DNA of 64,000 nucleotides from Escherichia coli (lineage in GTDB: Bacteria > Pseudomonadota > Gammaproteobacteria > Enterobacterales > Enterobacteriaceae), in assembly GCF_048403405.1 (NCBI RefSeq), contig NZ_CP183129.1; one strand, written 5' to 3'. The first letter of the stretch is position 1. The number at the start of each line of letters is the position of its first letter. A program made the position numbers. Of this stretch, positions 58,788 through 64,000 are shown piece after piece.

Positions 58788-61700
58788 TAGTGTCCTTCGT
58801 GGCTGTAGTAAAAGACCGGTAATCCCAGCTTAAGGCGTAGCGCCAGTAAACGGGCAAAAAAGCCGAATACCAGGGTGGAGATAATTACCACATCATGATT
58901 AGAAACATAGTGTTGCAGCGCGATGTACAGCACGGCGGAGGCAAATGAGACACCGGCATACAATTCTTTCTGGAATACCAGCGGGATGCGTTTACAGAAC
59001 ATATCGCGCAAAACGCCGCCAAATACGCCGGTCGTCACAGCTGCGACAACGGCAATGATCGGGCCGTGTCCCATATCCAGTGCAACCTGTGCGCCAATGA
59101 TAGAAAAGACCACCAGTCCGAGCGCATCGAGCACCAGAAACACTTTGCGCAGGTAAGGCATTACAGGAGCAACGATAGTGGTGAGTACTGCGGCGGTAGC
59201 GACAATAATCACATATTCCGGGTGTTTGACCCAGCCGAGCGGATAGTGGCCCAGCAGAATATCGCGCACTGACCCTCCGCCAATTGCCGTGGCGGTCGCA
59301 ATAATAATTACGCCAAATGTATCCATGCGCCGTCGTCCGGCCGCCAGCGCCCCCGTCATGGCTTCGGCAGTAATGCCAACCAAATACAAAATGTGTAACA
59401 GCATGGTTATCTCCCTAAAAATCTGTCTGGCAGGGTAGCGATTTGTACGCATTGTCACGATTGAGATTTTTTAAGGTGAGAGGAAATTGATAATTTTTAG
59501 TTATGTGAAATCGTTGTTTTCTGTAGCGTAGATGCATTCTTCTGACTTCTTGTCTGAGAAAATACATAAGAAAAAGTAGGTTAAAACTGAGGGGTGGAAA
59601 AGAAAGGTGCAATGTTAGCCATTGTGTTCACTGCACCTGGACCTTGGCTTACGCATCGGGTGTCTCAATCAACAAAAAGAGTTTTTAGTTTCTGCTATTT
59701 TTTCTCTGTAATTTTTACACTGTTTTCCAACTGCTTGATGCTGACCTGCGGGGTCGGCAACTCCTCAGGCATGGTTCCGCCAAGTTCCTGAATGGTTTGC
59801 CTCACCTTGCTACCCACGTCAAAGTGTGTGGTATTAGCTTGCTGTTTTGAATTCACGCCATCCCGCTTGAGTTTTTCTTCTGTTTGGGTAGCTCGAAAGA
59901 GATTAGCCGCCAGTTCTGTTGAACCCATATGATCCAGGATCTTCTGACTCTTTTTCAGCCCCTTCCGCTGATGGATGGCTTTCTGATCTAATCCACCATA
60001 CAGTCCCCGGTAACCATGATTCTGAAATATGGCGAAATCGATAGCTGTCGCTACCCCAGCTTGCTGCGCTGCCTCAACTAATTGTTTGTTATGTTCTTTC
60101 AACTCATTTCTCAGAAAAAGACGCTTTTCGTCTTCACGAAGTTGCCTGAAAGCTTCATCGTCAGCCAGCTCCTGCCGTCGGGTCTGGATAGCAAAATAAG
60201 TTTGTCCTGCCGCAATAACCGGTTTCGCAGGGTCGCCGTTTTGTACTACCAGGTAACAGGCATAGCGGGAGAGTACGATGTCTTTTAATGCTCTTTTGGC
60301 ATTTGAGCCAATTTTGACCATATCGAGGATCTCCTCGAAATGGTCATCAATTGTGTGACCACTATTCAGACAAGCTTCTTTGGCGCGCGTTAATACAGGT
60401 ATAAAGTGACGATACTCTGAATAACCCAGTAGTTTTCCAAGTTGTCTTGCTGACCATTGTTCTGCTCCGTTTGCATTAATCAGCTTTATCTCTTCAAAAG
60501 GTTGATGATGTTCGTTCATTGCCCACTCCATGTGATATCGATTGCAAGGAAAGTAAGTCTACAACTGTGTTTATATACAGTTGTAAGTATCTCACGTTCT
60601 CACTGCGCTGGGCAAAAAAACATCGCAAAATCTGGAGCAGGCACGCAAAACAGAATTGAATGTTGCGGGGAGGAAAAATGCCGCTCTGTTTGAGTGGGCG
60701 GCATTTGTGAAGGCTGAAAAGGAAGAATTGGCGTTACGAGTTGGATCTGTTTGTAGAGTGTTGGCTTCAATGCCGCATTGTGGCTGGTTTCTTTCTAATG
60801 CGATTTTTGATTATGTACACCCTTATGTACACGGTTTTTTCGGGTGCTTTGGTCAGAAGCCATTGTCTACATCCCTCAGGATCGAGGTGTGTAACCATGT
60901 TCAGGCTTGTTGTCCTGCGCGCGCGTATTGCTCGTGAAATTGCTGTACCCAATAGCGATGTCCGAAAAAAACCTCCGTTCTCACATGAAACAGCCATGTG
61001 CAACTGGTAACTGAACAGACTGGTAGACCGTTCGTTCAGTAAATACCTGATATTTCCGCCAACGAGAAATTGCGTTGGCTGGCAGAGTGCAAATTTGCAC
61101 GATGACCTAACCCATTGATTCTTCCACAATCCTCAATTTGAGGATTCCGGATAACACCATTTTTATAGCTCCGATCCCTTCAAAGTGAGGGGTAATTTGC
61201 CAAAACAGAGAGAGCATTACTGTCTCTGGCAATCTTTATCGCGATAACGCCTGAAGTACCCTCTCGCTTCCTCATCCATACCAAGAGCCGAATGAGTCCG
61301 CTTAACTGCCTGTCTTAAATCTCCGAATCTGTCTGTAGTTGCTGGTGGGCGTGCCGCCTTACGGATACATTCAGAGCGTCTGTTTGCTGCATGTTCACGT
61401 TCTTTATCGCCATCTGCCAGCATCATGACTTCTGCCCATCGTGCGGCAGCTCTCCGGTATAGCCCTTTTGACTCCAGCTCTTCAGCTTTCCTGTCCTTTA
61501 TCATTTCTGCCTCTCAGATTATATAGATAAGCAAAAAGGTGTTGGTTCAGTTGGTTCAGTTGGTTCAATTTGTAAAGAGCGTTGTTTTTATTGTGTTTTT
61601 TCTAAAATATTGAACCAACATCAACTCATTTTGAACCAACACAGCCCAGCTCTGAACCAACAACACAGCGATAGATTTGTGATTGGTCTGTTATTTTCTG

Positions 61701-64000
61701 GCTGATATTTGAGCGTATAACAGTGTTATACAGTGGTATACTGTATGGATATTACTTACTGATATGGTCTTTGCAATGAGCAAATCTAATCTGATCGCGT
61801 TCCGCATCCCATCTGAATTGCAGGATGAGTTTAATCGGTCTGTTCTCGCTTCTGGAGGAGATAAAACCTCTTGGCTTGTTGATGCGATTCGCATGAAGCT
61901 GGGGCAGCCGGAAAAGTCTATTGATTCACGAATGCTTGGGCTGGTGGAGCGCATGGAAAAAGCCGCTGCGTCGCTTATTGCCGGAAAGCCGAACATCCCA
62001 CCAAAACCATATAACGAAACGGCAGTTATAAAGATCATTGCCGATACCATCCAACAGGGATTTGATAATGGGCGTGTGATAGCTGAACGGATCAATGAAG
62101 CAGGCTATCAAACAAAAGCTGGTAAAGCGTGGGATAAAGATATTTACAGCGCGTGGAAGCGTCAGGGAAGCAATGCTGAAAAGTTAAAAGCGGTGATTGA
62201 TTGTAAGGTCAGCGTATAAACATGAGTGCCCATTGGAAAGCTGCTTGGGCTAATACCTTTATACACCATCAGGTGGTGACGATAGGTGAGGATCAGACAT
62301 GAAAGGCAGAACGCCACACATTGAACATCAAGCCAACCACTTCTCGGATGTTCGCAATGAGATGATTGCCATTCGCGGTGATATGCACGGAATGGAGCGT
62401 CGCCTAGCAGATAAGATGGACGAGAATCAAAAGTGGATCATCGTCCTGTTGATTTTATCAATTCTTATCCCGCTACTTATCGCATTGGTCACAAAATGAA
62501 TATCCAATGTGTATGCTGTCGATGCTACGCGCGCGTACTTGTCGCAAAATATCAGGCAAAGGCCAGATTCAGAACGTCGTGATAATCACCAGCACAACAT
62601 GAGATGTCATGTAACGCGATTGATCACACCAGATACATGTGATTGGTGTACCCGCATAAAACATCGTCATAGCGCGTCCTGTGCGCATATACGCCGATAA
62701 TCAACACATCACCACCACTCTGTCTTATGTAGAGAACAGTTTTATGGTGCTCCCCGCCATCGTGTGCGTACTGGTCGGACGCAGTTGCAAAATTTTTTGC
62801 AACTGATACCCCTCGCGCGCGTACTGGTCACGAAATTGGTGTTTTGCTGTGGCAGTGATATCAGAAAAATCTTCCTGTTTCACATAAAGAGGATATGCGC
62901 GTACTGTAACGGCCCCATCAACGGGGATCGGATTTGAAATCCCGACCCAAGCTATGTACCAAATGCCATGTCTTGGATATATGATGATTGCCATTCTAAA
63001 CAAAGCTAAAGGGAGGGTTGGTGTGAATGCTCAGGCTGTCATCATGGTTTTCCTTGGTCTGATTGTCGCAAAACTATATCCAGACTGGTGGAAAGGGGCA
63101 TTAGCAACTGTCGCCATCTATTTGCTTTTATCCGTCGTTAAGCGATCGTTCGTTAAGACCGTAAATCAAGCAAAACGTTTCTCATTTAAGAATTTAATAA
63201 ACTATATTACTGGGCTTATTTTTTGCCTTTCAATTTTGATCGCTTCAGCTTTTTTGCCCGTATCAATGGCTAATTTTTTTGGCGCACCATATGAGGTAGG
63301 TTATCTATTCTCTGTTTTTTGTCTTGTTCTTTCCCTTCTTTACCTATGGATGAGAGCAAAGAACAAAAATTAGCCATCCATGGCTAACCAGTTATTGAGC
63401 TTCTTTTTGTGATGCCTGTGCGACTCTGGTGAGCGATTGTGTGACCGTACTGATCGCTCTGTCATATGCTGTGCTACCTTTTGGCGTATTTGCCAGACGT
63501 AACAAGGCATTTCGTATAACAGGGGTTTCGTATGCCTTCGCTGCTCCGCCTACGGCACCAGCAGCAGGAACAACAAACGCAGCCGTTTTTAGCATCCCCG
63601 CTAATACTGCTGCGTTTATGATGCCACCACCAACTAACAATCCATAAAGCTGCTGACCATTTAAGTTTTGAACGTTCGCTTTTGCCGCGTGTCTTGTATC
63701 GTTGAGGTATTTAATAACGCCGTCCAGTTCCTTCCCATGTACGCCTTTAAAGAAAGTTGCTGATTGCTTCCTGTTCCGGTGTAACGCATTAATAAACTTC
63801 TCAACACTGATATTTCCAGACGGATCAGTCGCCTTATCTACAGCATTCTGAACTATGGCTGCTCGTGCGTTTTGCCTACCATTGTCATCCAGAAGCCTGT
63901 AAAGCTGAGAACGTTCTGATGGGCTTTGGCTAAAAACGAGTTTTGTTACATCCTCAGGCGTGGCCTTGCCGCTGGCTATTGCCTTTTGAACGCGCGTTCT

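Follow-up and report, generated by a model that had tools for sequence, protein, structure and literature searches.

A probable PICI-type satellite with P22-like ejection genes at the 3' end of yicC in Escherichia coli

Introduction

What occupies the space between dinD and yicC in those Escherichia coli genomes where the two genes are not neighbours? We addressed this question for a stretch of 64,000 nt from E. coli contig NZ_CP183129.1 (assembly GCF_048403405.1; the whole stretch is referred to here as the window), in which phage-like genes follow dinD up to the right-hand end. We report that the DNA from 60743 to 64000 is probably the attL-side end of an ~18-kb satellite of the type of the Gram-negative phage-inducible chromosomal islands (PICIs), which would use a P22-like helper phage and encodes ejection proteins of its own. 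Only the first 3.26 kb of the element lie in the window; the remainder is taken from relatives with 99.9% identity in the part that they have in common with it.

By definition, Gram-negative PICIs are 10-20 kb long, have most of their genes in one direction and carry an integrase gene (int), alpA and pri, with an origin of replication (ori) downstream of the last (PMC6092414, PMC10111431). Some E. coli PICIs encode PerC alleles (PMC6092414), and individual phage late genes may be carried by these islands (PMC10111431).

Results

Boundary and attachment site

In empty-site genomes, KE47 and HB101 among them, homology to the window ends at 60742 and the stop codon of yicC follows directly. This comparison puts the beginning of the foreign DNA at ~60743, and the interval 60583-60742, which an earlier reading of this DNA (the sequence-only reading) had assigned to the element, belongs to the core spacer. 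A junction probe of 601 nt (60300-60900) was partially matched in 4,729 of 5,426 complete E. coli genomes, with nearly all matches ending at 60742, where the annotation reads dinD / yicC, and at least 80% of it was matched in just 67. The interval 60583-64000 behaved similarly, with partial matches in 4,787 of these genomes and at least 80% coverage in 79. Carriers of the insert are rare (67-95 of the 5,426), and in ~4,700 genomes dinD runs into the yicC stop codon. The sequence-only reading had expected yicC after dinD and missed it here, and both points are borne out by the empty-site genomes; nor are the open reading frames (ORFs) found in its place core genes of all E. coli, most genomes having dinD next to yicC.

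Two relatives show what lies beyond the window. NZ_OZ040716 (L001) matches the window with 99.9% identity starting at 60741, and NZ_OY754371 (L003) spans the junction at 99.2% identity; in both, the insert measures ~18 kb and ends with a tyrosine integrase gene beside yicC, after which come rph and pyrE. In near-identical relatives, yicC and rph are therefore displaced by ~18 kb and lie past the integrase.

Alignment of the dinD-yicC regions of other strains and a search for att repeats, as proposed in the sequence-only reading, located the junction at 60742/60743 and revealed a 7-bp att core. Of the four sites compared (Table 1), attL lies in the window, and attR, attB and attP were reconstructed from relatives. 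As read from these sites, the element is integrated by a tyrosine integrase into the last codons of yicC, with a core of G(A/G)ATCTG. The replacement yicC 3' end that the element supplies has three synonymous differences and, in the site sequences, still encodes QIQNIE-stop; since the element's att carries synonymous codons, YicC would still end in ...QIQNIE. Relative to attB (L002 1944-1962), the displaced native yicC end at attL has lost 12 bp (ATTCAATGTTCT), a deletion that L003 shares. A 24-nt repeat, ATTATGTACACCyyTATGTACACG, is present inside both ends of the element. Its copy in the window (60811-60834) holds two ATGTACAC repeats, further TGTACA copies occur in the yicC-side arm, and from their placement the ATGTACAC repeats are probably arm-type binding sites for the integrase, whose gene adjoins yicC in L001 and L003.

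The attP site comes from NZ_CP148430.1 (L065), a circular record of 12,152 bp from a chicken E. coli, which is filed as a plasmid and has the same integrase type. It is a shortened member of the family, with a truncated gp20 gene and without gp16. Its yicC-side and window-side end sequences overlap by 8 nt and are joined at the 7-bp core, and we read it from these joined ends as the excised circular form of a member of the satellite family. The backbone recurs beside proA, at tRNA-Thr (thrW), where the integrase is another one, and its presence at two att sites with different integrases argues for modular mobility and not for a one-off relic; in one thrW copy the replicase differs as well and the ejection module is reduced.

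In the closest relative, L001, the positions 17437-19853 are occupied by ISEc23, an insertion sequence (IS) of the IS66 family, in place of dinD and the spacer; homology to the window restarts exactly at the attL core, ~150 bp past the annotated IS genes, and strain CH4794 has an identical break point (query position 159). On the core side, ~160 nt of the Campylobacter phage records MG065691.1 (A11a) and MG065686.1 (A18a) are 96% identical to the spacer 60583-60742; this E. coli dinD-yicC DNA is probably a contamination or a chimera in these records.

Gene content of the whole element

From the yicC side, the element of L001 encodes the integrase, a 321-aa protein (DUF6387 in other members), a 67-aa AlpA (Pfam Phage_AlpA PF05930, E 2.5e-8), a 143-aa protein, an AntA/AntB antirepressor-type protein, a DUF4222 protein, an Ash/Icd-type protein and several small ORFs, then a 918-aa primase-helicase, a 53-aa ORF and homologues of P22 gp14, gp7, gp20 and gp16, after which comes the part seen in the window. 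The primase-helicase has Zn-ribbon, Toprim and DUF927 domains and matches PHROG 1139 at E 6e-178; its N-terminus is 33% identical to the α protein of P4. The element thus combines an integrase with att sites and end repeats, alpA, pri with a downstream ori of two iteron sets, and a length of 18.1 kb without a full set of virion, lysis and packaging genes. Every testable feature that defines PICIs is present, and the features that define P4-like satellites and P22-like prophages are missing.

When 24 P22 proteins were searched against the L001 element by tblastn, gp7, gp20, gp16 and a fragment of terS were the only matches; gp14 fell below the tblastn cut-off and was identified by PHROG 651 and blastp. 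This search returned no terL, portal, scaffold, coat, gp4, gp10, gp26 or tailspike, and no SieA, c2, replication, holin, lysin or lysis protein. P22-like virion, lysis and immunity genes were not found in the IMG/VR loci carrying the iterons either. Annotation and PHROG searches of the relative's element gave no capsid, portal, terminase, tail, lysis or repressor genes, and likewise no relaxase, oriT, partition or conjugation genes. An intact P22-like prophage is rejected, its terminase, portal, scaffold, coat, tail, tailspike, lysis and immunity genes being absent. The sequence-only reading had left the choice between the edge of a prophage and that of an integrative element: the latter holds and the former does not. 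A PADLOC search with four backbone ORFs produced a single marginal hit (E 0.002), to the 321-aa protein. Copies of the element are damaged in places, with a truncated gp20 in the 12-kb relative, an ash pseudogene in L003 and an IS66 element beside L001.

The ejection-protein module

The ORF that is open to the window end encodes a product identical to the C-terminal 202 residues of a 701-aa protein in L001, whose full length matches PHROG 770 ('DNA transfer protein') at E 2e-161; P22 gp16 itself aligns to the part in the window with 35% identity (E 5e-19). The gene is the last of a gp14-gp7-gp20-gp16 cluster arranged in the same order as in P22. Its nearest phage counterparts, in phages N7 and HZ41, are 67% identical, and the ejection proteins of the element are 24-56% identical to those of P22 and 33-85% to those of an E. 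coli P22-like prophage, so that by sequence they appear to form a distinct allelic set. Between diverged satellite copies, the ejection genes show no stop codons, and the ratios of nonsynonymous to synonymous substitution (dN/dS) are 0.15 for gp16, 0.30-0.32 for gp20 and 0.06-0.14 for gp14, with 0.055 for the primase. Judged from these ratios, the ejection genes are under purifying selection and not decaying. As to what their products do, we considered delivery past exclusion, sabotage of helper particles, and a role as anti-phage decoys.

A terS fragment that starts at pac

On the strand opposite to the element genes, L001 carries a segment of 107 nt (33605-33711) that is 90% identical to nt 268-374 of terS of an E. 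coli P22-like prophage and 87% identical to P22 nt 4-110; its translated similarity covers TerS residues 75-132. The P22 reference record annotates pac at nt 4-25, which corresponds to nt 268-289 of gene 3, and the pac sequence, GAAGATTTATCTGAAGTCGTTA, was confirmed in the literature (PMC5261728). Since the match spans P22 nt 4-110 and pac occupies nt 4-25, the DNA shared by element and phage starts at the first base of pac. By tblastn of the relative, neither a terS nor a terL gene belongs to the element itself, and from this, together with the terS/pac fragment, we infer that a P22-like helper provides the TerS/TerL for packaging, with the copied pac region as the starting point. The segment may act as a functional pac, recognised by the TerS of the helper.

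A 201-nt region containing the segment is present in 478 of the 5,426 E. coli genomes (~9%), nearly always under an 'ash family' annotation; in the ~108 other genomes with a match to this region, among the matches listed, similarity is limited to probe nt 46-152 and lies in a P22-like terS gene. The alleles of the segment vary at the same short block as helper terS: L001 has the prophage allele, L005 approximately the P22 allele, and others a third. That the satellite alleles mirror those of helper terS suggests repeated exchange with helpers. In L003 the segment is retained despite the breakage of the overlapping ash ORF.

Paired iteron arrays

The phased repeat array pointed out in the sequence-only reading consists of three direct and three inverted copies of GTTGGTTCA around an AT-rich spacer (Table 1), and the 8-mer GTTGGTTC occurs six times in the 64-kb window, always inside this array. 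In relatives, a second, inverted copy of the ~130-bp iteron unit lies directly downstream of the primase gene, 7.1 kb away (L001 27937-28047). A Salmonella island (L066) has both copies too (9690-9810 and 16388-16498), 6.7 kb apart; the logic of the spacing is the same, and the genes in between are different. The exact iteron triple was found in 57 IMG/VR stretches, ~40 of which have a primase homologue (60-99% identity) within the fetched flank. The origin of E. coli PICIs lies downstream of pri and is made of two iteron sets that flank an AT-rich region (PMC6092414), and the annotation of P4 shows two distant clusters of one iteron, crr right after the primase gene, and ori. From the PICI-type architecture, the second copy after pri, the co-occurrence with primase homologues and the parallel with P4 crr and ori, we conclude that the element has two origin-type sites, to which its primase-helicase would bind, and that the array in the window is one of them.

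Related islands in other genera

Through homologues of the 147-aa protein encoded in the window, related islands that share the primase and the iterons can be recognised in other genera, and the genes that they carry differ. The Salmonella island L066, located in the same ligB-yicG neighbourhood, has between its two origin copies a gene for a 989-aa tape-measure protein (11439-14408; PHROG 1538, E 6e-190) with a 106-aa partner, along with PerC and a ProQ/FinO-like gene. In Klebsiella (L068) there is a 933-aa tape-measure protein (14124-16925) and also a tail-completion-like protein. The Pantoea island (L073) encodes an 858-aa protein (14659-17235) with a weak match to Pfam PhageMin_Tail, a tape-measure family, and a 65-aa Terminase_2 (small-terminase) fragment (11872-12069). 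An Erwinia relative has a protein of the E217_GP41 family, and a Serratia relative has no late gene. Tape-measure proteins resemble podovirus ejection proteins in that they leave the particle together with the DNA and assist its passage through the envelope; HK97 is reported as an example (Cumby et al. 2015). Since both kinds of protein leave with the DNA, the slot seems to hold genome-delivery proteins matched to the tail type of the helper.

Regulatory and accessory genes in the window

The remaining features of the element in the window are its regulatory and accessory genes and its non-coding stretches (Table 1). The sequence-only reading had proposed here a PerC/Pch-like regulator, a ribbon-helix-helix (RHH)-like ORF, two small membrane proteins and a large phage-like gene running past the window end. 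The first is supported by a full-length profile match (PF06069, E 3.6e-33, residues 1-89 against model positions 1-89 of 90), by matches to PHROG 994 and activator families and by the PGAP annotation of PerC in relatives; the last is the C-terminus of the gp16-type ejection protein described above; and hydropathy agrees with the two membrane proteins, giving one transmembrane (TM) segment and about four, respectively. As for the RHH-like ORF, it is real and conserved, and the fold is not demonstrated.

This ORF encodes the 147-aa protein, which has 365 homologues of 63-80% identity in Salmonella, Klebsiella, Enterobacter, Serratia, Pantoea, Erwinia and Pectobacterium, so that from its distribution the gene appears to be a conserved core gene of the wider island family. 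AlphaFold with an alignment gave a confidence (predicted local distance difference test, pLDDT) of 74 overall, with values >90 for residues ~80-140 and of ~50-67 for the N-terminus, where helices 13-25 and 30-41 follow an extended segment; the single-sequence model was unusable (pLDDT 40). The C-terminal domain bears a weak likeness to the helix-turn-helix (HTH) of recombinases, Pfam HTH_62 being matched only at E 0.5. No Pfam RHH match was obtained, PDB sequence and profile searches were empty, and Foldseek of the model against PDB gave nothing significant (best E 2), with RHH antitoxins among the weak matches; PHROG 30270 was matched at E 4e-4, and one database source names a homologue 'Arc-like'. 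The protein is a probable DNA-binding protein, and its modelled N-terminus is hypothesised to be an RHH fold, a label kept at that level because no profile or fold search was significant.

Upstream of the 147-aa ORF, the palindrome GTATAAC-AGT-GTTATAC (61715-61731) is plausibly an operator, as a similar palindrome precedes the Salmonella homologue. A LexA box was considered for this position and rejected, the palindrome being of the form GTATAAC/GTTATAC and not CTGT-N8-ACAG. Another motif, CGCGCGCGTAyTnGTCnnnAAAT, has full copies at 60918-60940, 62528-62550 and 62814-62836 and partial ones at 62764 and 62896. It is always on the + strand, has no common reading frame, keeps its positions in relatives and brackets variable cargo; a binding site for a regulator and a hotspot of recombination are both conceivable roles. 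An Rfam scan of 60400-64000 with E up to 1 returned no match, and scans for promoter and terminator consensus sequences found no excess over shuffled expectation. Within the non-coding P' arm, an isolated stretch of 60 nt (61106-61165) shares 95-98% identity with a portion of the roi/antirepressor genes from Stx (Shiga toxin)-converting and other lambdoid phages.

The slot between the 147-aa gene and gp16, taken here by membrane-protein genes, holds ImmA/IrrE, Abi or Doc genes in relatives and, by analogy, fits the immune hotspots described for PICIs (PMC11364771). The gene of the 139-aa protein and the gp16-like gene converge, and in the P22 gene order sieA takes the corresponding place; BLASTP of the 139-aa protein against P22 SieA found no similarity, and its gene is therefore analogous to sieA by position alone. 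The 139-aa protein has no significant Pfam, PHROG or PADLOC family, and PADLOC found nothing in four ORFs of the window. Elsewhere in the window, a 394-aa ORF (40276-41460, - strand) lies near tRNA-SeC (42098-42192, - strand); L003 has a tyrosine integrase annotated at the position of this selC-adjacent ORF, and there is probably a further island to the left of selC.

Table 1. Features at the right-hand end of the window, and the attachment sites of the element
Feature	Coordinates	Strand	Description
dinD	59695-60531	-	Core gene left of the insert
dinD-yicC core spacer	60532-60742		Outside the element; contains the dinD LexA box; matches empty-site genomes to 60742
dinD LexA box	60565-60580		CTGTGTTTATATACAG; sequence match
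attL core	60743-60749	+	GGATCTG; remnant of native yicC 3' end; four-way site comparison
attL (window)			...GAGTT/GGATCTG/TTTGTAGAG...
attB			...GAGTTATTCAATGTTCT/GGATCTG/CTCGCGC...
attP (circular relative NZ_CP148430.1)			...AGCTTATTCGATATTCT/GAATCTG/TTTGTAGAG...
attR			...TTATTCGATATTCT/GAATCTG/CTCGCGC...
Non-coding P' arm	60750-61216		Two ATGTACAC repeats, one CGCGCGCGTA motif (60918-60940), roi-like fragment
PerC-family transcriptional activator	61217-61504	-	95 aa; Pfam PF06069
Iteron array	61541-61661		Three GTTGGTTCA copies with 9-bp spacing (61541-61567), 42-nt spacer with 79% A+T, three inverted copies with 21-bp spacing (61611-61661)
Palindromic operator-like site	61715-61741	+	GTATAAC-AGT-GTTATAC-AGTG-GTATAC; ~35 nt upstream of the 147-aa ORF
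147-aa two-domain protein	61776-62219	+	N-terminal beta-alpha-alpha (RHH-like) pattern; C-terminal helical domain
66-aa protein, cargo	62299-62499	+	One C-terminal TM helix by hydropathy; PHROG 6324 (unknown function), E 3e-15
Non-coding stretch	62500-62953		Copies of the motif CGCGCGCGTAyTnGTC; variable cargo sits here in relatives
139-aa protein	62954-63373	+	129 aa from the PGAP start at 62984; ~four TM segments by hydropathy
gp16-type DNA transfer/ejection protein	63392-64000	-	3' part (last 202 codons), open to the window end

Discussion

Our results point to a satellite of the PICI type as the likely answer to the question of what separates dinD from yicC in this strain, and its life cycle can be sketched from its genes. 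AlpA-dependent induction would be followed by excision to a circle, and replication would proceed from the iteron origins, bound by the element's own P4-alpha/DUF927 primase-helicase, with the two inverted origin copies being analogous to P4 ori and crr. A P22-like pac/headful helper would then package the DNA by means of the 107-nt terS copy that begins at pac. The headful of P22 is ~43 kb, and multimers of the 18.1-kb element would fill a full-size P22-like head, as with EcCICFT073. The gp14, gp7, gp20 and gp16 proteins of the satellite would deliver its DNA, evade or impose exclusion at the level of injection, or spoil helper particles. The part in the window would be the accessory and regulatory end of this element, where PerC and a conserved, probably DNA-binding protein are encoded and a variable hotspot holds genes for membrane proteins as cargo.

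Several points weigh against this reading: (i) no helper phage has been identified, and helper identity, induction and packaging are all inferred. (ii) The integrase, AlpA, the primase, the pac-like segment and most of the ejection genes are seen in relatives alone. (iii) The 22-bp equivalent of pac differs from that of P22 at 6 of 22 positions and from that of the E. coli prophage at 5 of 22. (iv) The terS-like segment lies antisense in an 'ash family' ORF, and coding constraint could explain some of its conservation. (v) A circular assembly record falls short of proving active excision. (vi) The proposed role of the ejection proteins has no known precedent among published satellites.

The same genes could be read as a decaying mosaic, in which the remnant of a P22-like prophage has been fused to a P4/CP4-type island, with no satellite life cycle and with the phage genes as fossils. 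The ejection genes and the terS fragment are clearly of phage origin, some copies are deleted or interrupted (the 12-kb relative, L003 and L001), and PHASTER-type tools call insertions at the yicC site 'partial phage' (PMC10050402). However, a compact gene order that recurs at two att sites with different integrases, ejection genes that are intact and of low dN/dS, a complete replicon with its origin, the existence of a circular excised form, a terS fragment that starts exactly at pac and tracks helper alleles, and the use of the same slot for tape-measure proteins in other genera all speak against decay, and we regard this explanation as unlikely. Improbable, too, is a plasmid-like integrative element or a defence island that needs no helper, would be maintained by integration with episomal replication now and then, and would travel by mobilization or generalized transduction, and whose phage proteins would be only anti-phage decoys that, for example, poison P22-like injection or assembly: against the filing of one relative as a circular plasmid, the variable cargo hotspot with Abi, ImmA/IrrE and Doc genes and the immune hotspots of PICIs, which include tail-assembly inhibitors active on P22 (PMC11364771), must be set the lack of relaxase, oriT, partition and conjugation genes in the annotation and PHROG searches, a pac-homologous segment that is hard to explain without packaging, and the fact that defence and satellite roles are compatible. 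A P4-family satellite dependent on a P2-like helper is highly improbable and was rejected on the defining-gene test, for in spite of distant homology by tblastn to four parts of P4, namely Int (25% identity), the N-terminus of α (33%), Vis (35%) and the cI/Icd region (42%), and of two separated iteron clusters like P4 ori and crr, homologues of sid, delta, psu, epsilon, gop, beta and cII did not come up in the element in the same search, its closest sequence to the P2/P4 cos deviates at 6 of 19 positions, and the late genes carried are of P22 type.

The PICI-type satellite favoured here can be compared with four known systems: (i) With the Gram-negative PICIs, of which EcCICFT073 is an example (Fillol-Salom et al. 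2018, PMC6092414), it shares int at one end, alpA, pri, an ori of two iteron sets, a size of 10-20 kb, mostly unidirectional genes, PerC alleles in some members, accessory or immune hotspots, and a copy of the helper's packaging site in place of a terS gene. It differs from EcCICFT073-type PICIs in that their packaging site is a lambda-type cos, whereas here it is a P22-type pac (the terS fragment), and in that they carry a capsid gene where the present element has podovirus ejection genes (tape-measure genes in its relatives); it also has a second, inverted origin, an att site at the yicC 3' end and no Rpp-type function that we could identify. (ii) In common with satellite phage P4 it has a tyrosine integrase with arm repeats, a Vis/AlpA-type regulator, an alpha-type primase N-terminus, two distant clusters of one iteron, one after the primase (crr-like) and one in the regulatory region (ori-like), and the possibility of an integrated or a plasmid state. 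In contrast to P4, it lacks sid, psu, delta, epsilon and cos, the helicase part of its primase is DUF927 and not P4-alpha-like, and its helper is presumably a P22-like podovirus instead of P2. (iii) P22 and the Lederbergvirus group have the same gp14-gp7-gp20-gp16 order, followed by a convergent gene for a small membrane protein, and the 107-nt match that includes the pac position; however, the rest of P22 is absent, the membrane protein is unrelated to SieA and the ejection proteins are 24-56% identical. (iv) SaPIbov5-type islands, as summarised in PMC6092414, also carry the cos/pac site of the helper and not a terS gene, and differ in being Gram-positive, in having Stl-type regulation and in that no ejection or tape-measure genes are reported in that summary.

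E. coli PICIs as such, their origin architecture, PerC alleles, immune hotspots and carriage of the helper's packaging site are thus already known. In the open-access literature, a coverage that cannot prove novelty, we found no PICI aimed at P22-like pac phages by way of a terS fragment, no satellite-borne ejection or tape-measure proteins, and no paired inverted origins that bracket a late/cargo module. It is possible, and we put it forward tentatively, that the element belongs to an undescribed branch of the PICI type, with delivery proteins matched to the tail type of the helper, a terS/pac fragment, and a late/cargo module between inverted origins.

As a genomic island the element is ordinary, and two of its features are of specialist interest. 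The boundary and att site are now fixed for an island that prophage finders call 'partial phage', and the repeat array of the window has been recognised as a probable replication origin. If our reading is right, P22-like headful (pac) podoviruses would be helpers of enterobacterial PICIs through a copied terS/pac fragment. Satellites would also encode proteins that are ejected with the DNA, which suggests that the injection step, or its exclusion, may be a battleground among satellites, helpers and prophages. The family is common, with the pac-like segment in ~9% of complete E. coli genomes, and carries PerC and variable defence cargo; it would therefore bear on virulence regulation and on phage resistance in pathogenic E. 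coli.

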